From positions 576,001 through 640,000 of IMG/VR virus record IMGVR_UViG_3300021431_000075: 64,000 nucleotides of DNA; one strand, given 5' to 3'. This stretch comes from a virus (Duplodnaviria > Caudoviricetes). Under the pieces are notes generated by a model. The model was not told the origin of the DNA, searched no databases, and worked only from the letters and a program-made list of their open reading frames with translations. Below, piece after piece: positions 5,406-39,382 of this stretch (the stretch's first letter is position 1; every line of letters begins with the position of its first letter). A program made the translations under genes and the position numbers.

Positions 5406-5480
5406 TTATTGTTCAACCTGTGTTCTTTCAATAGAATTATCTTCAAAATCTGCATCCTTGATAATCAAAAGTTTTCCCAT
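5406..5480 (-). CDS. 24-aa leader micro-ORF MGKLLIIKDADFEDNSIERTQVEQ
   Basis: Manual translation; four paralogous micro-ORFs with synonymous differences, one per outer cassette. Confidence 0.7.
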   Translation of the reverse strand: MGKLLIIKDADFEDNSIERTQVEQ

Positions 5481-5504
5481 TGATTGCACTCTTATTTTTT
5501 AGAA

Positions 5505-5527
5505 ATTGTTTCTAAACAGGTAAGTTT
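5505..5527 (-). repeat. Outer-family putative recombination site L1
   Basis: Perfect 23-bp inverted repeat with 5595-5617; 22-bp core AAACTTACCTGTTTAGAAACAA also at 37478-37501 and 39221-39244. Confidence 0.8.
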
Positions 5528-5594
5528 GCATCTTGCTGGTTTTCAAAGACTTCAATTTGTTCACAATAGCATTATATGAAGTTGTAACTAACTG

Positions 5595-5617
5595 AAACTT
5601 ACCTGTTTAGAAACAAT
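5595..5617 (+). repeat. Outer-family putative recombination site R1
   Basis: AAACTTACCTGTTTAGAAACAAT; 67-bp spacer to L1 has no ATAAATA motif. Confidence 0.8.
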
Positions 5618-5679
5618 CGTTAAAAATACTAACACTTTTATTTTAATCATTTTAAAATAACATATGTAGCAAAGTTTTC

Positions 5680-5760
5680 ATGGGAAAGATTGTAATCATA
5701 AAGGATGCAGATTTTGAAGAAAATTCAATTGACATTCATCAAACATCATCAGAACAATAA
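5680..5760 (+). CDS. 26-aa leader micro-ORF MGKIVIIKDADFEENSIDIHQTSSEQ
   Basis: Manual translation; paralogue of 5406, 37375 and 39308 micro-ORFs. Confidence 0.7.
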   Translation: MGKIVIIKDADFEENSIDIHQTSSEQ

Positions 5761-5780
5761 AATAACTTCAACATCAAGAC

Positions 5781-8750
5781 ATGGGCGATCCAATTGTAAC
5801 GAAGATAAGCGTTCAAGACATTCAATATAAGATAAAAGGAACTCTTTATGACGAGCGTGGTTATAATACAGACGGTGGAATGACGCAATCTGCATTAAGC
5901 AGTTTGTTTGACAATATAGATCTTACATTGTCTGACATCAGAACAAAATCTGACGGTTTATCGCTCACATCAGAAGACGGTTTCTATATCATTGATGCAT
6001 CTGGAGACATAGCACTTAAAGTTGATAGCAATGGCGTGTTCGACGTATCTGCTATTGGAACGAATCTTCAAGAAATTATCGGAAACAAAGCGATACAAAC
6101 TGTTGATTCGTCGATTATAGAAATCAATAATACGATTGACAGTCTCGGAACAACTATTGATAATGTTGAAACAACTATTGATGATGTTGAAGGTGAAATA
6201 ACAGAATTGTCTAAAAATGCTCCACGTGTCGTAGATGATTACGGCGTCTATTTTACAGATGCTAACGGAAACATCATGTGGTTCATCAAGACATATAAAT
6301 GTTTAGAAGACGGTCTTTACTTCATAGATGAGCACGGCAATGTTGGTTTGCAATATGTAGATGGTGAATGGTCTTTTAGCAATCTAACAAATGTAGATGG
6401 AAGTGGTGGAGGAAGTTCTATTGATTCATCTACAATGGACCACTCATTGATAATGAGAGCAAATCGAGCAATAAAAGAACTCAATTCTGTCAAAAATCAA
6501 ATAGATCATTCTATACCATCATTATTAACACTTACTAATGGAGAAACACAATCAACATTCTCAACAACAGTTCAGAACACATCTGCTAAGGAAAAGGCAA
6601 TCGTTAGATTGAGATTGCACTATGGAAGTTCAAAGTACACTCCAGACAATAATGATATTTTCTTCAATGGAACTTGCAAAACGGATTTTAGCGACGTTAG
6701 GTTCTTTGACAGCAACGGAAACATGTTGAAAGCCGCATTCGGAGAACCGTTCCATCTTGGTGTGTATAGAGATACGAATCTGCATGGAACTGCACACGGA
6801 AGATACACAAAAATCACATCAAATGGTTATTTAATCAAACTTACCAACCAGGGAATTGTAATAACGAAGGATAATGGACAAACATGGACACCGATTGGTC
6901 CAAATGGTAGTGGTTATAAGAATTATTCCGAGTATCCGTCAGATGTGTATGGTTTTAGAGGTATGATTCCGGTTTTTGTTGATTCTAATAATAATTTATT
7001 TGGTTATTCAGGCGGAAAATTATATAAGATTGAACACGGAGCGAATTATGATTATGCAAATGAAGTAGAGGTCTGTGACTTTTCTTGGGTTTATACAGAT
7101 CCGTCAACAGGAGATACAAATACAGTATATCCGGAAATAACGCCGGCTGGAATGACTGAAGATATAAATGGCAATCTCTATTTCGGAACATATGCGGATA
7201 CAAAGTATTATCATGTAGACATATTTGTATCTACAAATCAAGGAAATTCCGGAACATGGGTTAAGAAATATCATAAAAGTGAAACAGACCTTGATGCTAC
7301 AGGGAATCGTCAAAAAGATTTTCAACATGTTCATCATGTCCATGCAGACAAATACTCTACCAAAGTATATGTCGGTATTGATGGCGGCTTTCCGGCACAA
7401 GGTCCAACACTCATATACACTGATGATGCCGGAGAAACATGGAATGATATCACAACAAGGTTAAAAGAGCATAGAGGTCATGACCAGTATCCTGCATATT
7501 TTGGACAAACATATAAGTTAGGTGGAGGTGAATCATATACTCTTGGTGGAAATTCAATCATCAGAGGAAATGCGGATGATACTGAATTTGAAGATGTTTG
7601 GAAAGGTTGGGGCGGAGTGCGTTTCATAAGCGACTTTGGCGATGATTCTCTGCTAATTGTCGGTATCCAAAGAAATTCTCATTTTGAAGAAAACCAGATA
7701 CTCTTATCATATGACCAGGGCAAGACTTGGAAAAACTTGATGCGCGTTGATACGCCCAAAAAGGTTACAAGTGGAGATGGATTCAGAAAAGCAATATATT
7801 GTGGAACTCTTGCTGGTGATACAGCACCTTGTGTTATTCTGAATCAGGGACATTTCACAGAAGCGTTTAGAGTATACAAAGAGACGAATGATTATTATAG
7901 AGAAGTTGAAGTAGAAGTTGATGACGTTCCATCTTCCGCTTCTGAAATAACAATCACTGCGAAAACAGGTTACGTAATGCCGTATCCATATACTACTGTT
8001 CGTGGTCTTGAAGTTGACGGGCTTGTATACGAGATTCCGTTCAATGAAGGTTGCGGAACAATGGTTCAAGATTCTCTTGGAAATATTGTTTCTATTGACG
8101 GAACAATTTCTTGGGAAACAAAAGAAGAACCAGTCAGATATGGAGAATATTCAAGCGAAGAAGATAAACCATTTGCATTCTCATCCGCAGCAAAAGTCAA
8201 TGGAATTCTTGACTTTGGAAAGATTGACGAATTGAATTTCTCAAATGGATATACGATAACTTTCTGGTGGAACGAGAAGAACCGTTTGTGTCATTATACG
8301 GAAGAAGAAAGATATGACCACGGTTATTTGACGAATCCTGTAATTTTGAGAATCCTGTCAGCCGGTAACTATGACTTGGTTAGAACAAGGGAAGCGATGT
8401 TCAGCATTATTCCAAGAGGCGCGACAACAAGAAACATTACCAATGGTCATTCAGCGGGAATGCAAGCGCTTCCTTGCAGTGATAATTATTGCTTTATCTG
8501 CATTGTTGTTAGCGACACAAGAATTTATCTTTATCTCAATGGCTCGTTATCAGGTGGCAACACTGTTGGTTCTTGGGTTGGTTTTAATGATATGAATCTT
8601 TCAGAGAACAACTTGGTCATAGGTAGTGCAGATACAGAGACGCCGGGTTATATTTCAGATTTCAAAATATACAACAGACAACTTTCAGATACTGAGATTA
8701 GAGACATTTACAAAGGCTTCAATTACGAGCCGCGACCAGAAAATCCTTAA
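5781..8750 (+). CDS. Outer cassette B: fibre/spike-like protein with DUF2341-like, BNR/Asp-box propeller (sialidase-like) and LamG/ConA-like domains
   Basis: Shared MGDPIVTKI N-terminus; CKTDFSDVRFFD; Asp-boxes TKDNGQTW, TDDAGETW, SYDQGKTW; C-terminal GYISDFKIYNRQLSDTEIRDIY. Confidence 0.7.
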   Translation: MGDPIVTKISVQDIQYKIKGTLYDERGYNTDGGMTQSALSSLFDNIDLTLSDIRTKSDGLSLTSEDGFYIIDASGDIALKVDSNGVFDVSAIGTNLQEIIGNKAIQTVDSSIIEINNTIDSLGTTIDNVETTIDDVEGEITELSKNAPRVVDDYGVYFTDANGNIMWFIKTYKCLEDGLYFIDEHGNVGLQYVDGEWSFSNLTNVDGSGGGSSIDSSTMDHSLIMRANRAIKELNSVKNQIDHSIPSLLTLTNGETQSTFSTTVQNTSAKEKAIVRLRLHYGSSKYTPDNNDIFFNGTCKTDFSDVRFFDSNGNMLKAAFGEPFHLGVYRDTNLHGTAHGRYTKITSNGYLIKLTNQGIVITKDNGQTWTPIGPNGSGYKNYSEYPSDVYGFRGMIPVFVDSNNNLFGYSGGKLYKIEHGANYDYANEVEVCDFSWVYTDPSTGDTNTVYPEITPAGMTEDINGNLYFGTYADTKYYHVDIFVSTNQGNSGTWVKKYHKSETDLDATGNRQKDFQHVHHVHADKYSTKVYVGIDGGFPAQGPTLIYTDDAGETWNDITTRLKEHRGHDQYPAYFGQTYKLGGGESYTLGGNSIIRGNADDTEFEDVWKGWGGVRFISDFGDDSLLIVGIQRNSHFEENQILLSYDQGKTWKNLMRVDTPKKVTSGDGFRKAIYCGTLAGDTAPCVILNQGHFTEAFRVYKETNDYYREVEVEVDDVPSSASEITITAKTGYVMPYPYTTVRGLEVDGLVYEIPFNEGCGTMVQDSLGNIVSIDGTISWETKEEPVRYGEYSSEEDKPFAFSSAAKVNGILDFGKIDELNFSNGYTITFWWNEKNRLCHYTEEERYDHGYLTNPVILRILSAGNYDLVRTREAMFSIIPRGATTRNITNGHSAGMQALPCSDNYCFICIVVSDTRIYLYLNGSLSGGNTVGSWVGFNDMNLSENNLVIGSADTETPGYISDFKIYNRQLSDTEIRDIYKGFNYEPRPENP

Positions 8751-8796
8751 TCCGGAATTTTTTAATTCTATTAAAATAATTTGATATAATAATTAT

Positions 8797-9666
8797 ATGA
8801 GCGGAATTGCATTTATAGTTCCAAACGCAGACTTTTCAGGCAGCGTTCTTGGACAAGTAACGATTCAGAAAACTGTTGAAGAAATGGCTTCAACGGTCGT
8901 AAAAGCATACACAGATAAGATTGGAAGCACTCAGTATTCTTCTCAACTGACGAATATGGTAATGTCTCTTATGAGAGAAGGAATATGGAACGGTATTGAC
9001 GTATATCCGATGCTCGGTTCCACTTTAAATCATATGGCTATCAATATAAATCCAAACAACGGATTCCAAGGCCTTGATTTGAAATTTGGCACTAATGCTT
9101 CATATGTTACAAATGGTGTTGAGTTTGCAGAAGGCGATGATTACGGAAGTACTATAACAGATGTGACATATAAGGCATATGACGGTACTGCTGCAGAAGT
9201 TACACAATCTCTAAATGGTTTCTACATATTATCTGATTTGAGAAGATATACTTTGAATGGAAGAATCAGAACTTTTTATACTACAAGAGGTAACCAGAAC
9301 ACTCCGGTCACAATAAAAATAGGTTCAACTGGTAAGGCTATTTGGGAAATTAGCAATACGAGTTTATCATCCACAACGTTAATCGGAACAAGTAGAAATA
9401 ATGTTTCATTTTCAATTAATAACGGAACAATGATAGAATATATTGATGGTGTTCAAGATGTATCGACAGCAGTTGGTTTTGCAAGCGACTCACCAAATGT
9501 CAGGATTGGCAATTTCTTGGGAGCATCGCCAGTTAATGATACTGCAGTAACCACATTTAACGGTTCTTGCTGGTTCTGGGCCATTGGCATAATAGATCCA
9601 TCAAAGCATGCGACAGCAAATACAATATTTAAGACATTCCTTGATGCAGTAAAACCGAACATTTAA
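8797..9666 (+). CDS. Cassette B partner protein (LamG-like beta-rich), paralogue of 41391..42371
   Basis: Shared MSGIAFI..N.DFS, IW.GID.YPM and IFKTFLD..KP motifs. Confidence 0.6.
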   Translation: MSGIAFIVPNADFSGSVLGQVTIQKTVEEMASTVVKAYTDKIGSTQYSSQLTNMVMSLMREGIWNGIDVYPMLGSTLNHMAININPNNGFQGLDLKFGTNASYVTNGVEFAEGDDYGSTITDVTYKAYDGTAAEVTQSLNGFYILSDLRRYTLNGRIRTFYTTRGNQNTPVTIKIGSTGKAIWEISNTSLSSTTLIGTSRNNVSFSINNGTMIEYIDGVQDVSTAVGFASDSPNVRIGNFLGASPVNDTAVTTFNGSCWFWAIGIIDPSKHATANTIFKTFLDAVKPNI

Positions 9667-9685
9667 CCAAAATACCATCAAATAC

Positions 9686-9725
9686 AAAAATGCCAAGACT
9701 TCTTAAAAATAGTCTTGGCATTTTT
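9686..9725. terminator. Intrinsic terminator
   Basis: AAAAATGCCAAGACT-loop-AGTCTTGGCATTTTT perfect 15-bp stem. Confidence 0.8.
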
Positions 9726-9760
9726 CATCATTTCAAGCATAAAATCAATCCTGATAGTTC

Positions 9761-9963
9761 TGTAGAACATAGAGATTCATAGAATCACATATGTTTACTT
9801 TCTTTTGACGATTCATCGGTGACTTGGTACTCACAAGACCATTCATTAAGAATGCGTTTTCCTATTGGTCATCTCCACGTCCCGTCTCCCCGAACTCAGG
9901 GGCAGCCCGGACTATCGGACTCCGGGAAATCCAGAGACAACTTAATGTCTCTATGAGTTTACA
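9761..9963 (-). mobile_element. ~200-bp non-coding element resembling an IS605/IS607 TnpB 3' end / omega-RNA-like miniature element
   Basis: GC-rich island; imperfect terminal inverted similarity (TGTAGAACATAGAGA / TCTCTATGAGTTTACA); minus strand GACG-TGGAGA...GATGAAT-CGTC; hairpin CCCGGA...TCCGGG. Confidence 0.35.
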
Positions 9964-10352
9964 AAGAACAATGATATTAAATCTACATAAGTATACTACA
10001 AGATGTCAAAATAGTTTAAAATAACTTCAATGTTTTTTTTGATAGCATATTAAATAGAATTAGTTAATGATTACAATACATTAAACATCAAACGTAAATC
10101 CATCAGGATTTCTAATTTCATACAGAATAACATTGAATACTATGAAGAAAATTGCGAGATAATGGCATATTGTGCTGGCAATTTTAACAGAATAAAGAAT
10201 GTTACAAGTTCTAACATATCTTCTGTCAATACATTAAGGGTATTTAGTAAAAACTATACATTTCACCGAATGAGTTAAACAAATGCATCAAGATAGTATG
10301 CGGAACTGCAATTAAGAAGGTTGCGCTTTCTATAAGTAGAAATAGTTATGGA

Positions 10353-10694
10353 ATGATAGCACTTGATGTTTATTCAGATAGACTTATTCCAGAAGGAAAA
10401 GAGCAGTTTTATCTTCCGGCGGTTCCAACTGATATGGGTAACATAAATGTTGGAGATAGTGTATTCGTAACATCTAATAACACAGTTGTTGTTTGGAATG
10501 GTTCGAAATGGGTTGAAAACGATAGTGCCGGAGCAAGTGTTGTCCGTAGCGGTGCAACAAGCGAGAGACCATCCGGAAGTTCAATTTATGTAGGATTCCA
10601 GTTCTTTGACACTACGCTTGGAAAACCTATATATGCTAATGCAATCAGCGGAAACACTGTAACATGGGTAGATGCAACAGGAGCAAATGTCTAA
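10353..10694 (+). pseudogene. Orphan C-terminal fibre module, probable remnant of a decayed cassette
   Basis: SGATSERP...GFQFFDTTLGKPIY...WVDATG resembles the C-terminus of 17104..20085 (KGTTVQR...GLRYYDTTLKKYVLWNGTQW); no conserved N-terminus or site upstream. Confidence 0.55.
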
Positions 10695-10705
10695 ATGATT
10701 TTTCA

Positions 10706-12457
10706 TTAAACTATTAATCTTTTCATTTCAGATAGATAAAACTTAAAAACTTTATCTTCTCCGGCTTGTGATTGGTGTTTGCCGTCATATGTATAAAGTC
10801 CATAACGTTTAGAATATCCATTATTCAACACTCCGTTATTGGTTGCTTCTTCATAAGTGCTTATCTGACCAGTCGAATCTTTAATAAAGTTGTATATCGG
10901 ATTTGTTCTTGACAAGTTAGTTCTGTCATTTGCAACACCCGGATTTCCATCATTGTAATATGGCTGGCATGGTTCAGTGAACGGAGAGAAACCACAATAA
11001 CGCTCTCCATCTATTATCTGAATGCACATGCGTTTGCATACATCTATTATAACATCATTCACTCGTTTAGCACTTTCACCATTCATATTACCCAATCTTT
11101 GAAATACAGTTCCGACAACAATATATGCAGTCGGATATTGTCTCTTGAGATATTCAAGATAGTATCTCATGCAAGCATATGTAGTCGTGGCGCTTTCAAG
11201 TTCTTTATAATTATATGTAGAGAATGCATCAGAAGCGGTTCCAATATCTTCTGTGTTACTAATGTCATTTCCACCAAGTTGAATGATAATTATATCAGGT
11301 TCTATATTTTCTGACTCAAAACTGTTTATCTGAGCGCCTAAACAATTTGTAAGTGTTTGGTCTTGATACTTATTTCTCCATGTAGCACCACCATTCGCAT
11401 AGTTTCTAAAAGTGTCTATTTCCAATTCTTCAGCAAGACGTTGTGCCCATTTGGTATTTCCGGTAGCGGTTGAAGAATCACCAAACACAATCATTGTTTT
11501 CCCTGATGTCGGCAAAGAATGTTTTAACGATTCGATTTTGTCATTCACTTCTGTGATTTTTGAATTAGTATATTCAATCGGATTCGATGTACGTTTCCAT
11601 AACGCTTTTGACAAAGATGTCCAAAGTGAGTTGAATATCAATGTGTCAAAAGAACCATCACATTCTATTGTTTCTGTTACAATTTCGGAACTTGTGCTTG
11701 AACCAATTTCTATAATTATATCATTCTTCACTTTTGCATATAGTTTTCCAGTTGAACCTCCTTGACCTGTTATTATGAACACATCTCCGATTGAAAAATC
11801 AGTTACTATTAAATATCTTCTTGTAGTTTTTGATGTATCAGGTGTAATTTCGGACAAACGATCACCGACATTTGTCTGAATCATTCCTACATTATTTGCA
11901 AAATCATCTTTGAAGTCAATGTCTATGTTTCCAGAAATGCTTGCTTTTATATTTTGCAATTCTTCTGTTATGATGTCTTTATATGGTCTGTAACTTTTAT
12001 GGATGATATTCAAATCTGCAGTTCTGCTGTTGAATATCAAAGTGTCAAATGTGCCATCGCAATAAACTTCAATCGTAGATAAAGAACTATTGCCTTCTGC
12101 ATATATGATAATGTCATCTTTTGCTTTCGCAACTAATTTTCCTGTTACACCTCCAGCACCTGTGATGATAAAAACATCTCCAGAAACAAAATCACTTGTT
12201 ATATAATAAGACCTGTTTGTTGATTCTTGGACAGTCTGCTCAGAAACTTTTCCATCAATTGGCGTTGGAAATATTCCATGTATGAATCTATTTTTAATAT
12301 CTTCATCATTTCTGTTCAGCAATAATGATTGTATAGTATTGGTTATAGTTGCTTGTGTTACGCTGCCGTCCGTGTTATAACCAAGTTCATTATATAAATT
12401 ATCCTTGATGTCATAAACAACACCTTTGACTCTTATTTTAGTTACATTATTACTCAT
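10706..12457 (-). CDS. Inner cassette 1: fibre-like protein with SGNH hydrolase domain
   Basis: Start reassigned to MSNNVTKIRVKG by paralogy; FGDSS, NGGA, QLGGND, DGKH blocks. Confidence 0.75.
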   Translation of the reverse strand: MSNNVTKIRVKGVVYDIKDNLYNELGYNTDGSVTQATITNTIQSLLLNRNDEDIKNRFIHGIFPTPIDGKVSEQTVQESTNRSYYITSDFVSGDVFIITGAGGVTGKLVAKAKDDIIIYAEGNSSLSTIEVYCDGTFDTLIFNSRTADLNIIHKSYRPYKDIITEELQNIKASISGNIDIDFKDDFANNVGMIQTNVGDRLSEITPDTSKTTRRYLIVTDFSIGDVFIITGQGGSTGKLYAKVKNDIIIEIGSSTSSEIVTETIECDGSFDTLIFNSLWTSLSKALWKRTSNPIEYTNSKITEVNDKIESLKHSLPTSGKTMIVFGDSSTATGNTKWAQRLAEELEIDTFRNYANGGATWRNKYQDQTLTNCLGAQINSFESENIEPDIIIIQLGGNDISNTEDIGTASDAFSTYNYKELESATTTYACMRYYLEYLKRQYPTAYIVVGTVFQRLGNMNGESAKRVNDVIIDVCKRMCIQIIDGERYCGFSPFTEPCQPYYNDGNPGVANDRTNLSRTNPIYNFIKDSTGQISTYEEATNNGVLNNGYSKRYGLYTYDGKHQSQAGEDKVFKFYLSEMKRLIV

Positions 12458-12504
12458 TGATTGCAAAATGATTACTTTTAGTATTAAAATTACAAAACTG
12501 CGAG

Positions 12505-12518
12505 GTTTCTTATTCAAG
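12505..12518 (-). repeat. Inner-family site S1 (one mismatch: CTTGAATAAGAAAC)
   Basis: 13/14 match to CCTGAATAAGAAAC; variant base at 12517. Confidence 0.7.
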
Positions 12519-12599
12519 CGAGTTTGCTACAGCATAGAACTACTTACAATTCTCTAATGCACAGAAACTTACACCAACTAATTGAAAGAGTAGAACTTA

Positions 12600-12613
12600 C
12601 CTGAATAAGAAAC
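12600..12613 (+). repeat. Inner-family site S2
   Basis: Exact CCTGAATAAGAAAC preceded by GAACTTA. Confidence 0.8.
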
Positions 12614-12660
12614 GTTGGAATTTTGATATTTTAATACTAAATGTAATCATTTTGCAATCA

Positions 12661-14700: not shown

Positions 14701-14729
14701 AAACTAAATAAACTATTCAATAAAAAGAT

Positions 14730-14756
14730 AATGAGCAACTATTTTAGTTGCTCATT
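14730..14756. terminator. Bidirectional terminator
   Basis: AATGAGCAACTA-TTT-TAGTTGCTCATT between convergent cassettes. Confidence 0.75.
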
Positions 14757-14768
14757 TTATCTTCAATT

Positions 14769-15545
14769 TTAATTATGCTCTATATGGAAATAAGTGTCTA
14801 TGTTTGATTCATTCAAAACAAATGTTACATCAACTGTTTGCGCTGCACTTCCATAAGCAGCCATGTTCAAAGCGAAACCGCCGCCTGTTGATGGAAGATA
14901 ACTTGACAAGTCGATAACTGTTTCTACTGTTGCACTACCTTTCCATTGCGAATCTCTTGAAATTTCTGTCAAATCATTTCCGGTTGCATAACAAACTCTG
15001 ACTTTATATCCGGGCGCTACATAAATCGTATAGTTGTTATCACTAACTGCTGTCAAGCATTTGGTAGTAGTTCCTTCAACCGTATCATACCATCCATATA
15101 TCTTGTTGTAATAAGTATCTGTTGAAGTATAAACTTTGAATTTTTTATCCGTTCCCCAACTACCGGTTACTGAAACGATATTGTGTTCTTCATAGAATGA
15201 AACATGTTCTTCTACTGCAATTGTCTTAGTGGCAGAAATCAATGAATTATAAACAGACGTTGCACGGATAACAATACTTTGCGCACTTCTATTCATATCA
15301 ATCGTCAAAACGCCATAACTGTTGATAGACGCGATTTCGCTTCCTTCTACAATGCTCCATTCGACGTCGGTTTCTTCCGTGTTGGCAGGATTGTAAACTA
15401 TACTATATTCAACGCTTGTCGTGTTGCTTGATATAGTTGAAGGTCCATCAATGCTTATGCTTTCAACACGACCTGCCAAGAAAGTTACTTGTCCCAAGTT
15501 ATTATTTGAGAAATCCAAATCGGTCACTTTTATCGCGATACCCAT
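14769..15545 (-). CDS. Cassette 3 partner protein with Ig-like (Big_2-type) domain
   Basis: MGIAIKVTDLDFS N-terminus; YNPANTEETDVEWSIVEGSEIASINSYGVLT. Confidence 0.65.
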   Translation of the reverse strand: MGIAIKVTDLDFSNNNLGQVTFLAGRVESISIDGPSTISSNTTSVEYSIVYNPANTEETDVEWSIVEGSEIASINSYGVLTIDMNRSAQSIVIRATSVYNSLISATKTIAVEEHVSFYEEHNIVSVTGSWGTDKKFKVYTSTDTYYNKIYGWYDTVEGTTTKCLTAVSDNNYTIYVAPGYKVRVCYATGNDLTEISRDSQWKGSATVETVIDLSSYLPSTGGGFALNMAAYGSAAQTVDVTFVLNESNIDTYFHIEHN

Positions 15546-15564
15546 AATTGTTTCTTATTTTGAT

Positions 15565-16905: not shown

Positions 16906-16952
16906 TGATTGTAAAATGCTTACTTTTAGTATTAAAATTACAAAACTGCGAG

Positions 16953-16966
16953 GTTTCTTATTCAGG
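16953..16966 (-). repeat. Inner-family site S3
   Basis: Exact reverse complement of CCTGAATAAGAAAC. Confidence 0.8.
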
Positions 16967-17047
16967 CGTGTTTGATGCGGCATATAACTACTTACAATTC
17001 TCTAATGCACAGAAACTTACACTAACTAAGGGAAAGAGTAGAACTTA
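16967..17047 (+). repeat. 81-bp spacer repeated between back-to-back sites
   Basis: Identical (reverse complement) to 32218-32298; about 8 mismatches to 12519-12599. Confidence 0.85.
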
Positions 17048-17061: not shown

Positions 17062-17103
17062 GATGTTTTTGAACACTTATATAGTAAAATTAGACATCAA
17101 CTA

Positions 17104-27768: not shown

Positions 27769-27790
27769 ATCTTTATATTAAAACAATTAT

Positions 27791-28342
27791 ATGGGAAAAG
27801 CGTTAATTATCAAAGGTGCTGATTTTTCTGCACACTCAATAGGTCCAATTCAAAGAATCGTTCAAATGGAATTTGAGCAGTCAAACATTATGTACAGACA
27901 GAGTGACTGCGGTGTTTATCCAAAACCGTCTGCGCAAGACCAAGTAGTTCTTCCGAAACGATGCAGAACAACAAATGGTACATTGATAGAAGTTGCACCA
28001 AACCAGACCATCACCATCAGCGGTTTGAAAGATCTATTTTATCGAATATTCGAATATCAGGCTTATACAAATGGAGCCGATGAATACAAAACAAATTATG
28101 CATTCACTGGAATAAACTATGGAACTTGGACTGACAATGTTTCAAATTGCTTAACTCCATATGTTTCCAGTTCTACAGATTCGAATATTGCATCAGGCTC
28201 AAGCGTGAACACAATAACTTATACAAATACACATGAAATGACAGTATATATTGGAATGCGTGTTGGCTGGAATGTTGACAGCGGAAAGAACGACACTAAC
28301 ATCTTGCCTGAGGAAATATCAGTGTTCGTTGAATATGATTAA
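27791..28342 (+). CDS. Cassette 6 partner protein
   Basis: N-terminus MGKALIIKGADFSAHSI resembles the micro-ORFs. Confidence 0.6.
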   Translation: MGKALIIKGADFSAHSIGPIQRIVQMEFEQSNIMYRQSDCGVYPKPSAQDQVVLPKRCRTTNGTLIEVAPNQTITISGLKDLFYRIFEYQAYTNGADEYKTNYAFTGINYGTWTDNVSNCLTPYVSSSTDSNIASGSSVNTITYTNTHEMTVYIGMRVGWNVDSGKNDTNILPEEISVFVEYD

Positions 28343-28363
28343 ACAAATTTATTCAAACATAAA

Positions 28364-28395
28364 AAAGTTCGTCAAAATAATTCTTGACGAACTTT
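28364..28395. terminator. Bidirectional terminator
   Basis: AAAGTTCGTCAA...TTGACGAACTTT 12-bp stem. Confidence 0.75.
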
Positions 28396-28409
28396 GTGTT
28401 TTATATTGT

Positions 28410-29354: not shown

Positions 29355-29540
29355 ATAATTTTACAATTTAATTTATTTTTTGCAAAAGTACGGCTTTTTT
29401 TTTAATTAGCCGTAGTTTTCACAAATAAAATTGCAAAATCACCCCAATTATATAATGATGTATAAAAACATAATCAAATTATGAAACTATCATCCAGTCT
29501 TGCAAGTGCTTTTAATAATTTGTTAATCTTTTCCATTGCG

Positions 29541-32156: not shown

Positions 32157-32203
32157 CGATTGCAAAATGATTATATTTAGTATTAAAATATCAAAAATCC
32201 AAC

Positions 32204-32217
32204 GTTTCTTATTCAGG
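32204..32217 (-). repeat. Inner-family site S7
   Basis: Exact reverse complement of CCTGAATAAGAAAC. Confidence 0.8.
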
Positions 32218-32298
32218 TAAGTTCTACTCTTTCCCTTAGTTAGTGTAAGTTTCTGTGCATTAGAGAATTGTAAGTAGTTATATGCCGCATCAAACACG

Positions 32299-32312
32299 CC
32301 TGAATAAGAAAC
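32299..32312 (+). repeat. Inner-family site S8
   Basis: Exact CCTGAATAAGAAAC. Confidence 0.8.
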
Positions 32313-32355
32313 CTTGCAGTTTTGTAATTTTAATACTAAAAGTAAGCATTTGCAA

Positions 32356-34836
32356 ATGAGCACTAACATAACCAAGATGAGAGTTAAGGGAGTCATTTAC
32401 AACCTTAATGGAAAGTTATATGACACAACTGGTTCTAATACAGATGGTTCAATAACACAATCTGCATTAACTAACAAGTTCAATGCAATTGAAGAAGATA
32501 TTGATGGTGCTGGCGGATTTGTTGAACTTGATTATAGCATAGAACCTCTTTCATCTCAAACTCGCGTTGGATTCATAAACTCAAGCAATCAGTGGAAAAC
32601 TGGAACCGCATCTTCAAATAACTTCATCATCGTAGATATAAGAAACTACCGTGGCTGGAAACTCACTACTCTTCGTTCAGCAGATCAGTTCGCATGGTTG
32701 ACAAGAGACGACAATCCATTTACTGATGGAGCCACACCTGCGTTTGTTTCTGGAACCGGAAGATTCGGCACTGGTGAATTGACAGATGAAATTATACCGG
32801 ATGCAGCATCATATTTGTATGTTTATATAGCATCCGGTTCATCCAAACCAATGCTTACTTTTACAAAAGAACACATAAACGGAATAAAGGACAAGATAAG
32901 CATTCTTGAAGATTCTGCAATAACAAAAGACATATTGTTTGAAAAAGCAAAGGGAAAGAATCTCATTGATGAAAGTAATGTTATTTTTGATGCAAGACCT
33001 GGCGGCACAAATGGAAAAATACAGGCAGATTCAACTCTCAACATAGCAATGACGCAGCTTATAGAAGTTACTCCGGGTGTTACATATTCATTAAGCGGTC
33101 AGTTTTATGGAAATGGATACGGGGCATACTATGGTGAAAACGCTACAACAGAAATAGGTCAAACTGGCATTGAGATGATTTCAACAGTTCTTGCGCCTCT
33201 CGGCGATGGTCGCGTATTTACTGTTCCGAATAACAATAACATAAAGTATGTCATTATAGTTCTAAAAGCGCAAAATCATAATCAGCTTTTGGGTTCATGT
33301 CAGCTTGAACGCGGCGAAGTTCCAACTGCATATGAACCTTATACTGAAAACGACAAGATTAAAGAGGAATTTCTTCCTGAATATAGTAGTTACGAAACAA
33401 GCGATACCATGCTTGATTATTATACAGACATAACCACATTGACATATCCGAATATTAGCGACAAGTTTCCTAATTTCAGAGAACATTGGATTCTGAAAGA
33501 CAAGGACTTGGTTGTTGTTAATACAGGAACTTCATTAACTGCAAGAACAATCGAGCATTGTACAGAAAGAGAAGATGCTGCATATAGACCGCCATTGCTT
33601 CATAGCAATAACATCGCCAGTATGATTTGGGATAAGATAAAATGGGAAGGTCAAGAATACAGAAGATATGATTCGAAGACAGAACATGATGGTTCAACGA
33701 ATATGTTTACGGAAACCGGAACATTCGCAACATCATTCAACTTATCAGAATGGGATGATGGCGGTTTCAGAAACGGTTTGACAAGATATGCAAGTGGTAG
33801 TTGTTCTGTTCAATTTACAATACCCGCTGATGCTCATCAGTTTAATTTCATTTATAGAACTGATTCTGTAGGCAGCACGGCATGTACGGTTAGTGTGACA
33901 AGCGGAACGGTTCAAATATATAACGGAAGCGGATGGATTGAAGCAAACGGTTTTAGTTTCAGTATGCGAGAAAGCGCAGTAACTACATTGCCGAGCGTAA
34001 CATACAAGAATCCATACACCGGTTCTAATGAAACAATAGAAAATGTTCAAGTAAAGGGAAATACCACGTATCAGAAGAGGCTTAAGTTTAGAGCGGTTAG
34101 CAATTCTGCAGCAAAGACTATAACAATAAGTAGTTCTTCTGGAAGATTTATGTACTGGGGAGTTGAATATTCTCCGAGAGATTATATGATTACTTATATA
34201 AATGCTGCACGTGGAGAGCATTCTTCAAGACTTGACAACCCGGATGGGACATTGAAACTTCTAATAAATTATCAAGATAATGAAATATGGGATTTCAATC
34301 CAGATTTAATATGCGCGGAAGATCCTATTCATAATTACGGCGGAGCAAAACTCGGTGAATATCATACAAAAACATTCTTTGCACAAGCAAGCGAAAACTT
34401 TTTCTTTGCAGATAATGGAATAAGCATGCTCTCAAGATTAAACACTCTTGGGAAGAATGTCCCTGAATTTATCATTCATAACTCATCTGTATGTAGGAAT
34501 TTTTTGACAGAAAACAATGTTTCACTTCTGGTTAATGGAGACTTGCCGGTAGTTCACATAAAAGATGGTTCAACTAATAAGATTGGATGGACCGCGCTTG
34601 ATGCACAAAGTAGCATTTATCTTTATATGCTTGAAAATCATTCAAACATCATCTATATAAACGCGTTTAGAAACTGGATTGAAGCGTGCAACAAATGCTA
34701 TGGAAATCTTGAGAATGCTACAACAGGAACCGGAAAGAACGGAAACACTTTCTCTGATGAAGGCTCTCATTATAATGATACTGGATGCAAAGTTATGGCA
34801 AGAGTGATATTGCCGGTTTTTGATTTTATCGTTTAG
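32356..34836 (+). CDS. Inner cassette 8: fibre-like protein with divergent SGNH-like domain
   Basis: Start reassigned to MSTNITKMRVKG; TGTSLT, INAARG, EGSHYNDTG blocks. Confidence 0.65.
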   Translation: MSTNITKMRVKGVIYNLNGKLYDTTGSNTDGSITQSALTNKFNAIEEDIDGAGGFVELDYSIEPLSSQTRVGFINSSNQWKTGTASSNNFIIVDIRNYRGWKLTTLRSADQFAWLTRDDNPFTDGATPAFVSGTGRFGTGELTDEIIPDAASYLYVYIASGSSKPMLTFTKEHINGIKDKISILEDSAITKDILFEKAKGKNLIDESNVIFDARPGGTNGKIQADSTLNIAMTQLIEVTPGVTYSLSGQFYGNGYGAYYGENATTEIGQTGIEMISTVLAPLGDGRVFTVPNNNNIKYVIIVLKAQNHNQLLGSCQLERGEVPTAYEPYTENDKIKEEFLPEYSSYETSDTMLDYYTDITTLTYPNISDKFPNFREHWILKDKDLVVVNTGTSLTARTIEHCTEREDAAYRPPLLHSNNIASMIWDKIKWEGQEYRRYDSKTEHDGSTNMFTETGTFATSFNLSEWDDGGFRNGLTRYASGSCSVQFTIPADAHQFNFIYRTDSVGSTACTVSVTSGTVQIYNGSGWIEANGFSFSMRESAVTTLPSVTYKNPYTGSNETIENVQVKGNTTYQKRLKFRAVSNSAAKTITISSSSGRFMYWGVEYSPRDYMITYINAARGEHSSRLDNPDGTLKLLINYQDNEIWDFNPDLICAEDPIHNYGGAKLGEYHTKTFFAQASENFFFADNGISMLSRLNTLGKNVPEFIIHNSSVCRNFLTENNVSLLVNGDLPVVHIKDGSTNKIGWTALDAQSSIYLYMLENHSNIIYINAFRNWIEACNKCYGNLENATTGTGKNGNTFSDEGSHYNDTGCKVMARVILPVFDFIV

Positions 34837-34857
34837 TTTTATTAAATACAAAAAATG

Positions 34858-34895
34858 AAGGATTCTTAAAGTTTTGTTTCAAGAATCCTTTTTTT
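34858..34895. terminator. Bidirectional terminator
   Basis: AAGGATTCTT...AAGAATCCTT plus T-tract between convergent cassettes. Confidence 0.7.
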
Positions 34896-34914
34896 GATTA
34901 TAAATTTAATCAAT

Positions 34915-36021
34915 TTAATTATCAATATAAATCTCTGCAGAAGGGAAATTAGCGAATGGGATTTCTACAATATAGGAATTGTTACCTAATGATATGAGAT
35001 TCCTATTGCTTGTGATAGATTTTCCTTGCAACGGTGTTCCCGATGTAGAAAATTTCACACTAATTGGAACTTGCAAGAGTTCTGTATTTACATTCAATGT
35101 ATTTTGTGTTTCAAGACGAATTGATAATCTGTTTGTCGAGTCGTACTTTGGTGAATACATCACAGCTTTTGTTATAATACTACGATATACGAAATAAGCA
35201 AGTGCTTCACCATATCCAGCAAAATATATTTCATTGTTTGTATTCTTATTTGCAAGCATTTGAAAATACTGACGATAAATAGAGCCTTCTGCATCTATCG
35301 TGGTTACTGTTTCTCCACATGCTTGTTCATTTGCTAAGATTGTGTGCCAATGAGTGAAATTATTTAACCAACCGCCATTAAGAAGTGTTTCATCTATCTT
35401 TGCAGCAACAGTGTTAAGATATGAAATACCTATCGGATTGTCACCATTTGATGGGAATGCAGTATCATGCCATCTAAATGTACTTTCTTTGCTAATAAAT
35501 CGTGCTATTGAATAAGGCATATTATTCGGTGTTCCATAACCGACACCATAATCAGTTTCACCGCTTATTCCTGAATTCCTTCCACCAAGCCAATATCCAT
35601 CACTTTCTGCATAAGATTTGAAAGTCTGATTACCATAAGAGTAAGAAAACGCATTAGGCACTCTACCATACTGTTCAACAAACCTTGGTATATGATAATC
35701 ATCTCTATATTCATTATACATATCTTCTGATATGATACCACTGGTTGTACTTGGGTTTGCATTTGGGGTCCAGAAATAAACATCTGGCCAAAATAAGTTA
35801 TTATCTATTAGTTCATGTATTTTTTCAGTTGCTTCGTTTCCATAATTAGTATAATACATAAACGCGCCAACTTTAATGCCAAAATCTTCTGCAAGGTTCA
35901 AGACGCCAATAGAACCATTTTGAACTTGGTCGCTTTGTTCTGTATATGTCATCTTTTTGCCTAATCTATGAGCACATATTTCTACATCATAGTCTTTTCG
36001 TGGGAAAAATATTACATTCAT
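34915..36021 (-). CDS. Cassette C second gene: polysaccharide-deacetylase-like protein
   Basis: PNAFSYSYG and GGWLNNFTHWH resemble NodB-fold motifs; divergent. Confidence 0.45.
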   Translation of the reverse strand: MNVIFFPRKDYDVEICAHRLGKKMTYTEQSDQVQNGSIGVLNLAEDFGIKVGAFMYYTNYGNEATEKIHELIDNNLFWPDVYFWTPNANPSTTSGIISEDMYNEYRDDYHIPRFVEQYGRVPNAFSYSYGNQTFKSYAESDGYWLGGRNSGISGETDYGVGYGTPNNMPYSIARFISKESTFRWHDTAFPSNGDNPIGISYLNTVAAKIDETLLNGGWLNNFTHWHTILANEQACGETVTTIDAEGSIYRQYFQMLANKNTNNEIYFAGYGEALAYFVYRSIITKAVMYSPKYDSTNRLSIRLETQNTLNVNTELLQVPISVKFSTSGTPLQGKSITSNRNLISLGNNSYIVEIPFANFPSAEIYIDN

Positions 36022-36028
36022 AATAACA

Positions 36029-37354
36029 TTAAATCTTTACCTTAATTGTGTAGTTTGTGCTATCAATGTAAGCATATCCAGTTTCAATATTTGTGCCGTC
36101 GCTTACTGGTAAGTCAGCAAGTAAATTCTCGATTGTTGGCGTTTCGGATTCGCCTCCATCTTCACTACTTCCACCACTGTTGTTGGAACCTTTAATCGCA
36201 TAACCCTTTATTTTTGATATTTCTTGCATAAACGGTTCAAATGATGGTAAAGTATTACCTTCACAAATCATCAATTCATCATAAGGTGTTTCCCAATCTT
36301 GAGGAATTGTACTACTATTTGACTTTATATTAAAAAGAAGATATGCAGCATTATTCGGAGATGTGAGTGTTTTTGGAGATAAAAAACCTTTTGGATCTGA
36401 AAAAATATATGGAGAAGTGCCGCTTAATTCAATTTTTGCATCATTTGAATCACGGAAAACAAAATAACCAGCACGTCCGAGATAAAAACCACCGAATGTA
36501 TAATCTGTATTTGGTTTAATTGCAATCCTAATATAACTCCAATCAGAACCGTTTGTAATATTACCAGTATTTGAAATGTATTTTCCTTCAACAATATTAT
36601 TTGTCTTGTCTGCAAGATTCTTTCCGCTCGGTTCCAGAGTTAAATCATTATTATCTATATATTCTGTTAAATCAGAATGTTGTACATATTGCTGTAATGA
36701 TGTAGATAATAAAGGATTAACTATATCTTCAATTTGTGAATTTGGAACTTTCAGTTCATATCCTTTTATTTTATTGACATAACTATAATAAGGTTTAAAA
36801 GAAGGTAAAGTATTACCTTCACAAAGCATCAATTCATCATAAGGCGTTTGCCAATCTTGAGGAATTGTGCTACTGTCTGATTTTATATCAAAAAGAAGGT
36901 ATGCGGCATTACTTGGAGTTGTGATTGTTTTGGGAGACAAAAAACCGTTTGGGTCTTTAAAGGCATATTGAGATGTTCCGCTTAATTCAATTTTTGCATC
37001 ATTCGTGTCATGAAAAACAAAATAGCCTGTCCGTCCGAGATAAAAACCACCGAATGTATAATTTGTGTTTGGCTTGATTACAATCCTAATATAACTCCAA
37101 TCAGAACCGTTTGCAATATTACCAGTATTTGTAATGTATTTTCCTTCAATAATATTTGTCTTGTTTGCAAGATTGTCACTTGCAACGATTGACAAATCAT
37201 CATTACTTATAAACTTCTCATTTACTTCATCAATAACATCTTGAATATTGTCAGCATCTAAACCACTTGTAGATGAATCATAAGATACTAAAGAAGCAAC
37301 TGTGCTTATAGTATAATCACGTTCTTCAACATTTATCTTCGTTACATTAGCCAT
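36029..37354 (-). CDS. Outer cassette C: fibre-like protein with a tandemly duplicated ~140-aa domain
   Basis: MANVTKINVEERDYTI N-terminus; near-identical repeats at ~36749-37174 and ~36191-36619. Confidence 0.65.
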   Translation of the reverse strand: MANVTKINVEERDYTISTVASLVSYDSSTSGLDADNIQDVIDEVNEKFISNDDLSIVASDNLANKTNIIEGKYITNTGNIANGSDWSYIRIVIKPNTNYTFGGFYLGRTGYFVFHDTNDAKIELSGTSQYAFKDPNGFLSPKTITTPSNAAYLLFDIKSDSSTIPQDWQTPYDELMLCEGNTLPSFKPYYSYVNKIKGYELKVPNSQIEDIVNPLLSTSLQQYVQHSDLTEYIDNNDLTLEPSGKNLADKTNNIVEGKYISNTGNITNGSDWSYIRIAIKPNTDYTFGGFYLGRAGYFVFRDSNDAKIELSGTSPYIFSDPKGFLSPKTLTSPNNAAYLLFNIKSNSSTIPQDWETPYDELMICEGNTLPSFEPFMQEISKIKGYAIKGSNNSGGSSEDGGESETPTIENLLADLPVSDGTNIETGYAYIDSTNYTIKVKI

Positions 37355-37374
37355 TTTCTGATGATGAAGTCATT

Positions 37375-37452
37375 TTATTGTTCTTCTATTGATACTGTTT
37401 CAACTGAGTTTTCTTCAAAATCAGCATCCTTGATGATTAAAAGTTTTCCCAT
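37375..37452 (-). CDS. 25-aa leader micro-ORF MGKLLIIKDADFEENSVETVSIEEQ
   Basis: Manual translation; paralogue of the other three. Confidence 0.7.
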   Translation of the reverse strand: MGKLLIIKDADFEENSVETVSIEEQ

Positions 37453-37477
37453 TGATTGCACTCTTATTTTTAGAAGT

Positions 37478-37501
37478 TTGTTTCTAAACAGGTAAGTTTC
37501 G
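37478..37501 (-). repeat. Outer-family site L2
   Basis: Perfect 24-bp inverted repeat with 39221-39244 flanking the recombinase gene. Confidence 0.85.
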
Positions 37502-37534
37502 CTTTTTTATGATTGTAAAATTTACAGTCATAAC

Positions 37535-37568
37535 AAAAGAGAGAGCGAACATCAATCCGCTCTCTCTT
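37535..37568 (-). terminator. Recombinase terminator insulating cassette C
   Basis: AAGAGAGAGCG...CGCTCTCTCTT stem between recombinase stop and L2. Confidence 0.7.
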
Positions 37569-37594
37569 GTATACATTAAAAATAAAATAATCAA

Positions 37595-38587
37595 TCAATC
37601 ATTCCAGCATACGTACTTTCCAAACGCGCTTTCCGATTTATGTCCAGATGCGCGTCTCACTTCTTCGTTGTGCAACCCACGTTTGATTGCATTTGTAATC
37701 ATCGTTCTTCTTGCCGTATGTGAACTGATAAGCTCATAGAACTTGTATGTCACTTTCTTCAGTTCCCCGTTCTGCTTATACTCGTATACGATCTCATCAT
37801 CAAAACCGGCAAGTTTGAACAGTAAGTGAAGATACTTGTTATAGTTCTCTGTGCCTCCCTTGTATGGATTCGTATAGTTATACTTCATAAGAAGTCCCTC
37901 TATTATTTTTGGATATGGAGCTATCCTTTTCAAATCTATGACTGCTTTGTTTCCTGTTTTCTTCTGAATAATCGTAAGAACGTTGTTATTGAACATCGTC
38001 TTGTCGATTCTTTCGATGTCAGATATTCTCTGTCCAAGCGCGCATGAAATGACAAACTGGTCCCTGACTTTCGTAAGAGTCTGCTTGAGCTGTGGTCTCA
38101 CGTCAAGAGTGCTTATGTCAAAATATGTTATTCTGGATACTTCATCTTGCGTCAAAGCAATCTTTGGTCTCTTGTCGCTACCCGGCATGTAACAGTCTTC
38201 CAGTGTTGGAGACACTTTCGCCCCGTACTTGGCAGACCATTTCAGAACTGCCGAAATCTTGCAGCAGATGTTGTTGATTGTGCTTGTTGCAAGGTTCTTC
38301 TGAAGAAGGTAAGTATGAAATTGCTGCCAGAACACATCTCCGATTACAATCGGGTAAAGAACGATTTCATTCTCGTTCTGGATATTCATCAAGTGCATCT
38401 TCACTTGAGAGTATCTCCGTTCAGCTGCTTTCGTTGATGCTTTTGAGCGAATCTTCACATACTGGTCAATACATTCAAGAACCGTTGCATTCTTGAGATT
38501 GATAAAATGGTTAAATTTGTCCGTGTCTGCAAAGATTTTAAAATTTGGACACTTCTTTTCCGGTTCTTCCGATTTTATATCTGCCAT
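37595..38587 (-). CDS. Tyrosine recombinase (Bacteroidota-type integrase family), putative invertase
   Basis: Catalytic signature GQRISD (R), QKKTG (K), SHTARR (HxxR), SGH, and Y in FGKYV. Confidence 0.92.
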   Translation of the reverse strand: MADIKSEEPEKKCPNFKIFADTDKFNHFINLKNATVLECIDQYVKIRSKASTKAAERRYSQVKMHLMNIQNENEIVLYPIVIGDVFWQQFHTYLLQKNLATSTINNICCKISAVLKWSAKYGAKVSPTLEDCYMPGSDKRPKIALTQDEVSRITYFDISTLDVRPQLKQTLTKVRDQFVISCALGQRISDIERIDKTMFNNNVLTIIQKKTGNKAVIDLKRIAPYPKIIEGLLMKYNYTNPYKGGTENYNKYLHLLFKLAGFDDEIVYEYKQNGELKKVTYKFYELISSHTARRTMITNAIKRGLHNEEVRRASGHKSESAFGKYVCWND

Positions 38588-38627
38588 GACGACTTTATTT
38601 AATTGTAATTATTGTTGTTTGTGTCTG

Positions 38628-38635
38628 CAAAATTA
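38628..38635 (-). promoter_or_regulatory. Bacteroidota-type -7 box TAATTTTG upstream of recombinase
   Basis: Matches TAnnTTTG followed by CA, as at 29383 and 58221. Confidence 0.55.
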
Positions 38636-38768
38636 TAATTTTAATCTCAAAGAAGAAATTATACGGAACATATTTGAGAAAAATTTAACTTTAATTAAGC
38701 CAATTTGTAGTTTTGTCTATTCAAAATGAAGAAATCTCTCATTTTTAAGCGTTCAAAATAAAAGCAAA

Positions 38769-38776
38769 GATAAATA
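38769..38776 (+). promoter_or_regulatory. Distal late-promoter-like GATAAATA in the outer switch
   Basis: Context GCAAAGATAAATA identical to 26031-26043 (minus strand). Confidence 0.5.
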
Positions 38777-39132
38777 AAATCAGAAGGATTGATACTATCG
38801 AGCATGATGCGAGTGGCTTTGTAAAATGCATTAGATTGCAGACGCAAGGTTTCATTCTAACGAGTTTGAAAAGACATTCCGTCAAGAAACCTCCGGTTTT
38901 TCTATTAGGCTGGAAAGTTTCGCCGGGAATCATCACCGGACTTTACAGAGGATTTTCCGCACATCGCATATGTCTGTAGATAATGTACGTGCTAATATCT
39001 ATAATAGATTTGTTTTTGATGAGACTCTTCGCAAGTCTGCATGAAATGACAATTTTCTCATAAAACGACAATGGTTCTATTTAGTGTTTCTTCACGACAG
39101 TCAGCAAATAAAAACAATGCTAAAAACGTTAA

Positions 39133-39140
39133 GATAAATA
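39133..39140 (+). promoter_or_regulatory. Proximal late-promoter-like GATAAATA in the outer switch
   Basis: Context AAGATAAATAnTAAAAT shared with the 25890 motif; ~80 nt from site R2. Confidence 0.6.
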
Positions 39141-39220
39141 CTAAAATAATGATTATTCGAACTGATGCTGTGATGAACATTTCAGAGAAGAATATCCGTT
39201 TCGATAACAAGTTTGAAAAA

Positions 39221-39244
39221 CGAAACTTACCTGTTTAGAAACAA
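39221..39244 (+). repeat. Outer-family site R2
   Basis: CGAAACTTACCTGTTTAGAAACAA. Confidence 0.85.
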
Positions 39245-39307
39245 TCGTTAAAAATACTAACACTCTTGTTTTAATCATTTTAAAATAACATTTGTAGAAA
39301 AGTTTTC

Positions 39308-39382
39308 ATGGGAAAGATTGTTATTATCAAGGATGCAGATTTTGAAGAAAATTCAATAGAAAGAACATCATCAAATCAATAA
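39308..39382 (+). CDS. 24-aa leader micro-ORF MGKIVIIKDADFEENSIERTSSNQ
   Basis: Manual translation; paralogue of the other three. Confidence 0.7.
   Translation: MGKIVIIKDADFEENSIERTSSNQ

Follow-up and report, generated by a model that had tools for sequence, protein, structure and literature searches.

Micro-genes ahead of switchable tail-fibre genes in a rumen phage as candidates for a free adaptor module

What might a reading frame of some two dozen codons contribute when it is placed directly in front of a phage tail-fibre gene? The question is raised by a 64,000-nucleotide (nt) stretch of rumen phage DNA, bases 576001-640000 of the 673,114-bp virus record IMGVR_UViG_3300021431_000075, which has direct terminal repeats; we call this whole stretch the window. 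The genome carries a 14-cassette fibre-switching array, and in the window four short open reading frames (ORFs), here called micro-ORFs m1 to m4, each stop 20-21 nt upstream of a large fibre gene of the 'outer', or class-A, cassettes. An earlier note on this DNA had singled out four frames of 24-26 amino acids (aa) with the pattern MGK(LL/IV)IIKDADFE(E/D)NS..., and all of them are located, and read, as it described:

5406..5480, minus strand: micro-ORF m1, 24 aa, MGKLLIIKDADFEDNSIERTQVEQ; among true gene starts, its start context scores at the 78th percentile
5680..5760, plus strand: micro-ORF m2, 26 aa, MGKIVIIKDADFEENSIDIHQTSSEQ
37375..37452, minus strand: micro-ORF m3, 25 aa, MGKLLIIKDADFEENSVETVSIEEQ
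39308..39382, plus strand: micro-ORF m4, 24 aa, MGKIVIIKDADFEENSIERTSSNQ
genome 566078 (minus strand) and 566278 (plus strand), ~10 kb upstream of the window: two extra copies

Counting the two copies outside the window, the micro-ORF is present in six of the six class-A cassettes of the genome, in line with the claim that it leads every outer cassette. Our preferred reading, which we hold with about even confidence, is that the micro-ORFs are translated mini-genes for a payload-less adaptor of ~24 residues, probably filling an MGK-type socket where no MGK-type protein is present.

Constraint on the micro-ORF coding sequence

Seventeen distinct nucleotide versions were compared, drawn from the six copies of the genome, close relatives and a sister lineage (L036-L041 and L027), and representing two rumen phage lineages; in the sister lineage the recombination site upstream of the micro-ORF differs by one base, and leaders and spacers differ. 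Over codons 2-18, variable sites are distributed 6/2/16 across the three codon positions (chi-square p=0.0015), 11 of the 17 codons vary synonymously only, and replacements are restricted to L/I/V, E/D and A/S/E. The pooled ratio of non-synonymous to synonymous variation (pN/pS) is 0.12, with pS of 0.36-1.0. This comparison across homologues, which the earlier note had proposed, points to purifying selection on the amino-acid sequence and puts numbers on its remark that the copies differ synonymously with their frames intact. One copy, L027, has 11 nt differences that produce 3 amino-acid differences (P=0.0002 under random placement of substitutions); the same test gave P=0.04 for L036R and P=0.16 for L036L. 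When neutral drift was simulated, the 18-codon core stayed open in just 23-30% of trials per divergent pair.

Between lineages, the core is the best-conserved segment of the leader region, with identities of 74-85% in the core, 49-72% in the leader, 46-71% in the tail, 19-90% in the spacer and 56-75% in the first 60 nt of the fibre gene. A near-invariant F-E-E/D-N-S lies within the core; the C-terminal tail varies freely, and length variants of 24-28 aa are all in frame. Start contexts rank at the 56th-78th percentile of 307 long-ORF true starts and at the 96th-99th percentile of random ATGs. One frame-disrupting change of the kind that the earlier note had named as telling against it was seen, a stop at codon 13 in the related contig L021; because ~25 other loci in the two lineages are intact, this single decay does not overturn the coding reading. 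By these comparisons, the micro-ORF is kept by selection on its amino-acid sequence.

Could translation itself, and not the peptide, be what matters? In a translational-coupling or anti-polarity leader, which we consider unlikely, translation would cover the long 5' leader and hand ribosomes to the fibre start, the peptide being functionless. Such a role suits the layout: the ORF always ends right before the fibre start (over 11 measured copies, the gap is 5-28 nt), its start region is good, unstructured and A-rich, its C-terminal tail is free to vary, and the host, probably Bacteroidota-like by an indirect assignment, appears from a position weight matrix to use starts without a Shine-Dalgarno sequence. 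However, a functionless peptide leaves unexplained the pN/pS of 0.12 in the N-terminal 18 codons, the near-invariant F-E-E/D-N-S and the full-length homology to a module carried on unrelated payloads in other phages. Moreover, the spacing is not conserved, there is no RNA structure that masks the start (z from -0.3 to +2.0), and class-B cassettes of the same array manage without any upstream ORF (uORF). The earlier note had offered a pure coupling leader as its alternative. This is insufficient: the gap between stop and start can be anything from 5 to 28 nt, yet the core is conserved. Ribosome delivery is thus compatible with the layout but leaves the amino-acid conservation unexplained; alongside an adaptor role it may be a side effect, with micro-ORF translation bringing ribosomes to a fibre start a few to ~30 nt downstream.

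The comparison with uORFs and leader peptides in general runs the same way. As in those, a short ORF in a good start context ends just before a main start, in an unstructured leader. Unlike those, the N-terminal core shows conservation at the protein level and homology to a structural module, and we found neither an attenuator or start-masking structure nor a sign of a peptide-independent function; fold z-scores of the leader RNA ranged from -0.26 to +2.0, none of them significant.

Other local causes were rejected. Selection on an antisense or +1-frame gene instead fails as an explanation on two counts, in that the wobble changes of the MGK frame would be non-synonymous there and the antisense ORFs lie in inconsistent frames. 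A read-through or frameshift fusion of micro-ORF and fibre was discarded, as the relative frame changes from copy to copy and two in-frame stops occur in m4. Gene conversion with the 5' ends of partner genes as donors was likewise set aside, the longest shared exact run being <=10 nt.

One module, alone or fused to unrelated bodies

Among the 28,663 frames of the 673-kb genome, the sole other significant match to a profile built from micro-ORFs only was a full-length partner protein at 27791 (E=0.0076), and a joint profile of micro-ORFs and partners gave exactly 10 N-terminal occurrences, namely the six micro-ORFs and four partners. All four in-genome partners (4/4) sit after fibre genes:

27791..28342, plus strand: full-length MGK-type partner of 183 aa; nothing else in the genome is closer to the micro-ORF module
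8797..9666, plus strand: MSG-type partner, 289 aa, with a disordered N-terminal module and a concanavalin A (ConA)-like lectin body
41391..42371, plus strand: MSG-type partner, 326 aa
14769..15545, minus strand: MGI-type partner, 258 aa

As the micro-ORF-only profile recovers partner 27791 alone and the joint profile those ten occurrences, the resemblance between micro-ORFs and partners far exceeds chance. The partner N-termini quoted in the earlier note (27791, 8797, 41391 and 15545) are correct, and its claim that the same pattern begins them stands for 27791 (E=0.0076); for the MSG- and MGI-type proteins at 8797, 41391 and 15545 the likeness is weaker and appears in the joint alignment only.

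Outside this phage group, a degenerate DNA pattern for MGKxxIIK[GD]ADF matched ten full-length proteins (149-227 aa) on contigs of 14-54 kb from unrelated gut and rumen phages, along with three further micro-ORFs of the group itself. Their genes lie at the distal end of tail modules, beside large fibre-, esterase- or DUF4886-type genes and upstream of lysis genes. The proteins have different bodies (InlB B-repeat, Fn3_assoc/CHB_HEX_C or no Pfam match), with the first folded domain starting from about residue 30. Across 11 proteins, M1, G2, K3, L5, I6, I7, K8, A10, D11 and F12 are invariant and the bodies are 17-33% identical to the reference; since the search pattern covers residues 1-12, agreement among the external proteins is independent only beyond residue 12. 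The micro-ORF peptide aligns along its entire length with the N-termini of 149-239-aa proteins whose bodies are unrelated, a ConA-like lectin included (MGKLLIIKDADFEENSVETVSIEEQ against MGKVLIIKDADFSVNAIETIVPSV is one example). Micro-ORFs are 24-28 aa long and the module of the full-length proteins ends at about residue 24-28. Given the whole-length alignment, the micro-ORF corresponds to the complete module and nothing more, and the earlier description of it as a stand-alone N-terminal module holds up in the alignments and Pfam bodies: the module is separable and is found alone or fused to unrelated payloads. Sequence searches of the PDB brought up nothing of relevance, and an ESM Atlas search on the module no usable match.

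One external arrangement is of interest for its gene order. In an unrelated 52-kb phage contig (L031:1370-3054, minus strand), an MGK-type protein of 227 aa lies directly upstream of a 332-aa protein, with a 4-nt overlap; the latter starts MKKINFININGDTYKL, resembling the fibre N-termini here, and the order parallels that of micro-ORF and fibre.

What the partners look like was approached by structure prediction. An AlphaFold2 (AF2) model of the 289-aa partner at 8797 has a mean predicted local distance difference test score (pLDDT) of 73 and a predicted template modelling score (pTM) of 0.78. Residues 1-20 are modelled at pLDDT 47-59, without secondary structure and outside the folded body, which appears to be a helical pair plus a ConA-like, CBM40-like or LamG-like sandwich; its PDB fold matches include lectin-like receptor-binding subdomains of various proteins, a similarity of fold only. 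The model of the MGK-type partner at 27791 was unusable (mean pLDDT 43). The module MGKxLIIK[GD]ADF[SE]..., of ~24 residues, would mark glycan-binding accessory proteins of the tail in rumen and gut phages and offer a handle on how such phages attach extra binding domains to their fibres.

A possible socket filler

Short docking modules have precedents. Secondary receptor-binding proteins (RBPs) of Klebsiella KP32/KP34-like phages, K1-5/SP6 and G7C carry a conserved N-terminal docking peptide (PMC6872550), for which there is experimental proof (PMC13352976). By analogy with these peptides, the module may dock onto a tail component (PMC6872550, PMC13352976). The interpretation in the earlier note is borne out in part: the module is separable and selected, and its docking onto a trimeric fibre N-terminus, as a plug or chaperone, is conjectural. 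The likeness is in layout: docking peptides of 7-29 aa form a short conserved extreme N-terminus on swapped, unrelated bodies and are encoded beside the primary fibre gene, and here too a conserved extreme N-terminus sits on unrelated bodies, with the gene beside that for the primary fibre or RBP. Unlike the branched RBP systems, the payloads here are small lectin- or Ig-like domains and not depolymerases, there is no sequence relationship, and binding is presumed.

On our preferred reading, the module would be an adaptor, gaining order when it binds a tail component, and the free peptide would occupy the socket, on fibre or baseplate, that the module of an MGK-type accessory protein otherwise uses, acting as a filler or cap where no full-length MGK-type protein is supplied. 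The micro-gene lies past the recombination site, in the constant 5' leader of its class-A cassette, a position that would keep it with its fibre through inversions and co-transcribed with it. Differences between the free and fused forms fit the reading: E13, E/D14, N15 and S16 are invariant in micro-ORFs, and full-length modules have S13 and then variable residues, so that the F-E-E/D-N-S of the micro-ORFs is specific to them.

The same residues also suit a functional peptide that fills no socket, such as a competitor in accessory loading, a released chaperone strand or a nascent-peptide regulator of fibre translation. We regard this as quite unlikely, although it shares the selection evidence, the peptide is strongly acidic and the micro-ORF-specific E13, E/D14, N15 and S16, against S13 and variable residues in the full-length modules, suggest a derived role. 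Nothing observed is specific to a competitor, chaperone or nascent-peptide role, and the conserved part is N-terminal. Ribosome-arrest peptides, in contrast, are usually conserved beside the stall site, at the C-terminal end.

The one decayed copy bears on the preferred socket-filler reading most directly. At L021:7650-7700 (minus strand), the micro-ORF reads MRRIIINDVDFK*, 12 codons with a stop at codon 13, and also shows an in-frame codon deletion and several replacements; it precedes an intact 1031-aa fibre gene. That fibre is 77% identical to its orthologue P0006, whose cassette has an intact micro-ORF and no partner, and the L021 cassette alone gained a 239-aa full-length MGK-type partner (L021:3727-4446, minus strand). 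This complementary pattern of decay and partner fits a socket filler. A cassette in L042 with a 177-aa MGK partner was rejected as a second case: it is of class-B type and so provides no test of complementarity.

A bolder extension, which we consider doubtful, is that free 'hook' peptides are components of the virion or its assembly. Each switchable fibre would bring its own payload-less strand to fill the socket of a full-length MGK-type accessory lectin, and the micro-gene would no longer be needed, and would decay, after an MGK-type accessory protein joins the cassette. Docking strands serving as parts in their own right would, if this is true, form a class of phage micro-protein that is new. 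Should the free peptide prove to fill a socket, one module would be used both fused and alone in the array of one of the largest known phage genomes. Proteins of <30 residues are routinely missed in phage annotation, and the comparative evidence here is unusually clean.

Several observations weigh against the socket-filler reading, most of them to do with the fibres themselves. The fibre genes led by the four micro-ORFs are as follows:

2890..5385, minus strand: fibre gene led by m1, 831 aa, without a partner gene
5781..8750, plus strand: fibre gene led by m2, 989 aa, with BNR/LamG matches
36029..37354, minus strand: fibre gene led by m3, 441 aa
39404..41362, plus strand: fibre gene led by m4, 652 aa, with weak alpha/beta-hydrolase matches

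First, no shared socket was found in the fibres, only their first ~45 residues being common to them. Second, a profile-profile comparison of the module with the fibre N-terminus found no similarity (probability 1%). Third, neither Pfam nor PHROGs placed a T4gp10-like branching domain in the fibres, though that fold was not the target of a sensitive profile or structure search. Fourth, the cassettes at 5781 and 39404 hold both a micro-ORF and an MSG-type partner, and a rule of 'plug when no partner' therefore needs separate MGK and MSG sockets. Finally, translation of the micro-ORF is read from selection and start context, the complementary decay comes from a single case, and that same case means that one lineage tolerates loss of the peptide. 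As a separate matter, a common C-terminal docking module among the partner-bearing fibres was sought and none was found. The fibre N-termini (window 5781-5990 and others, profile positions 19-55) contain a G.LYD..G.NTDG..TQ stretch, which matches a widespread repeat; in public data, proteins as long as 5298 aa have as many as 44 units of it, and the fibre N-terminus thus carries a single unit.

Decay also invites the view, to which we attach only a slight probability, that the micro-ORF is an evolutionary relic, the 5' stub of a truncated accessory gene copied six times with its leader and not yet decayed. Truncated secondary RBP (RBP2) genes of 61-69 aa are the precedent, found in some Klebsiella podophages: that of KpV767 has 69 aa including the 29-aa peptide and that of KP-Rio/2015 has 61 aa, and both were read as retrograde evolution or relics (PMC6872550); the authors speculated that truncated RBP2 persists as a docking site (PMC6872550). 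These are also the nearest precedent for the socket-filler reading, as there, too, an ORF cut to little beyond the docking peptide lies beside a full fibre gene. The KpV767 and KP-Rio/2015 truncations are single and lineage-specific and occupy the RBP2 position downstream of RBP1. Here, by contrast, the ORF is trimmed to the 24-28-aa module and lies upstream of the fibre in a recombinase-driven array, with six copies per genome, conserved in two lineages under purifying selection. A sporadic relic is expected to show no selection, whereas we found a pN/pS of 0.12 and six copies, intact in two lineages. The decayed L021 copy does favour a relic, and exchange of segments within a genome, as in L036, where tails are 100% and cores 75% identical, could slow decay. 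Against this, synonymous sites are near saturation with the amino acids kept, ~25 loci are intact in two lineages where neutral drift keeps 23-30% open per divergent pair, the stub ends at the module boundary and not at an arbitrary point, and there is no gene conversion from full-length partners (shared exact run <=10 nt).

The exchange in L036 is an observation in its own right. The copies at L036:1826-1900 (minus strand) and L036:4902-4976 (plus strand) have tails and spacers that are 100% identical and cores that are 75% identical, pointing to a recombination breakpoint within the micro-ORF.

Recombination sites and the cassette array

When the four regions are aligned, an invariant GAAACTTACCTGTTTAGAAACAA motif appears ahead of each micro-ORF, 27 nt from the ATG in minus-strand copies ('L' leader) and 65 nt in plus-strand copies ('R' leader). 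The 18-nt core of this putative class-A recombination site, ACTTACCTGTTTAGAAAC, occurs in exactly 6 copies genome-wide, as three inverted pairs, each copy followed by a micro-ORF and then a fibre gene; the third pair is outside the window, ~10 kb upstream. A recombinase gene lies between the inverted sites of m3 and m4:

5508..5525, minus strand: class-A site core, exact 18-mer, 27 nt upstream of m1
5597..5614, plus strand: class-A site, 65 nt upstream of m2
37480..37497, minus strand: class-A site, 27 nt upstream of m3
39225..39242, plus strand: class-A site, 65 nt upstream of m4
37595..38587, minus strand: tyrosine recombinase (Pfam PF13102 and PF00589; PHROG 1 integrase)

Related contigs were obtained via fibre homologues from cattle and sheep rumen assemblies. 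No close relatives were found in IMG/VR or the annotated phage set; exact-pattern scans of viral contigs for the peptide and for the site gave no match, a search for relatives of the recombinase likewise none, and the annotated phage collection no useful match. In the related contigs the same cassettes have different neighbours, and the junctions switch exactly at the 18-nt site. In L011, for example, an m2-type cassette takes the place next to the recombinase end that the m3 cassette has in the window, and in L018 an m4-type cassette is located at the short back-to-back spacer. Many related contigs end at the recombination site. Because cassette junctions in relatives switch at the motif, we read it as the recombinase site, a reading that the neighbour switching supports. 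However cassettes swap neighbours among assemblies, the site never separates the micro-ORF from its cassette; seven related contigs, for instance, have the P0002 fibre together with one identical m2 version.

With the sites in view, a last alternative can be weighed, in which the conserved 50 nt are a DNA-level element (an inverted-repeat arm, a site for an accessory factor of the recombinase or a homology pad) and the frame is incidental. The copies do form 53-78-nt inverted repeats beside the recombination sites. However, variation is concentrated at wobble positions (pS 0.4-1.0), the opposite of nucleotide constraint, the exact invariant sequence is a separate site of 18-23 nt upstream, and junctions in relatives switch at that site and not inside the ORF. 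We regard this alternative as largely refuted, with hardly any probability left to it.

In its layout, the array has the features of a shufflon: several inverted short sites, a tyrosine recombinase nearby and, in comparisons among assemblies, alternative junctions at the site. Invertible fibre cassettes are familiar from the Mu G segment and the P1 C segment, which combine the variable part of a fibre with a downstream chaperone, and from the R64 shufflon. A BV01-like phage has a tail-fibre shufflon, and tail-fibre shufflons are known in Bacteroidaceae phages (PMC13596623). Like these systems, the array pairs a recombinase with inverted short sites to exchange fibre cassettes, each with its own accessory gene. 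Unlike them, it exchanges whole genes with their own starts and not 3' segments, and its enzyme is a tyrosine recombinase. We know of no Mu, P1, R64 or BV01-like system with a conserved micro-gene between site and fibre gene.

Further features of these leaders and their surroundings were noted. Gene callers annotate a 42-aa ORF in relatives (L015:5851-5979, L018:5628-5756 and L009:5669-5797), which opens at an ATG just outside the recombination site and reads across the site into an L-type micro-ORF in certain junction configurations only. As a true gene this extension was rejected: it is not conserved, a TAA breaks it in m1, and m3 lacks the ATG. A second motif, TTTTAAAATAAGAGTG (AAATAAGAGTG in L leaders), is kept between lineages (window 5481-5507 and 37453-37479; leaders of L036, L038 and L027). 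It lies ~6 nt from the ATG in L leaders and ~23 nt in the R leaders of the sister lineage, a position too variable for a ribosome-binding site; it could be a promoter or a regulator site. Between the recombinase stop and the left site, a strong terminator-like hairpin with a 14-bp stem (37537-37568, minus strand) is present and should keep transcripts that start within the segment from entering the m3 cassette; only the right-hand end of the recombinase segment would then act as an expression site.

Mobile genes adjoin the array in some relatives. At L009:10617-13095, an IS607-like pair (a MerR-resolvase and a TnpB/Cas12f-like protein) adjoins the P0002 cassette, and in the sister lineage a TnpB adjoins the recombinase (L036:2095-4437). 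In the window, directly after the last cassette, the minus strand at 42429-46850 encodes an acidic protein of 1473 aa with 84-87-nt repeats in long arrays.

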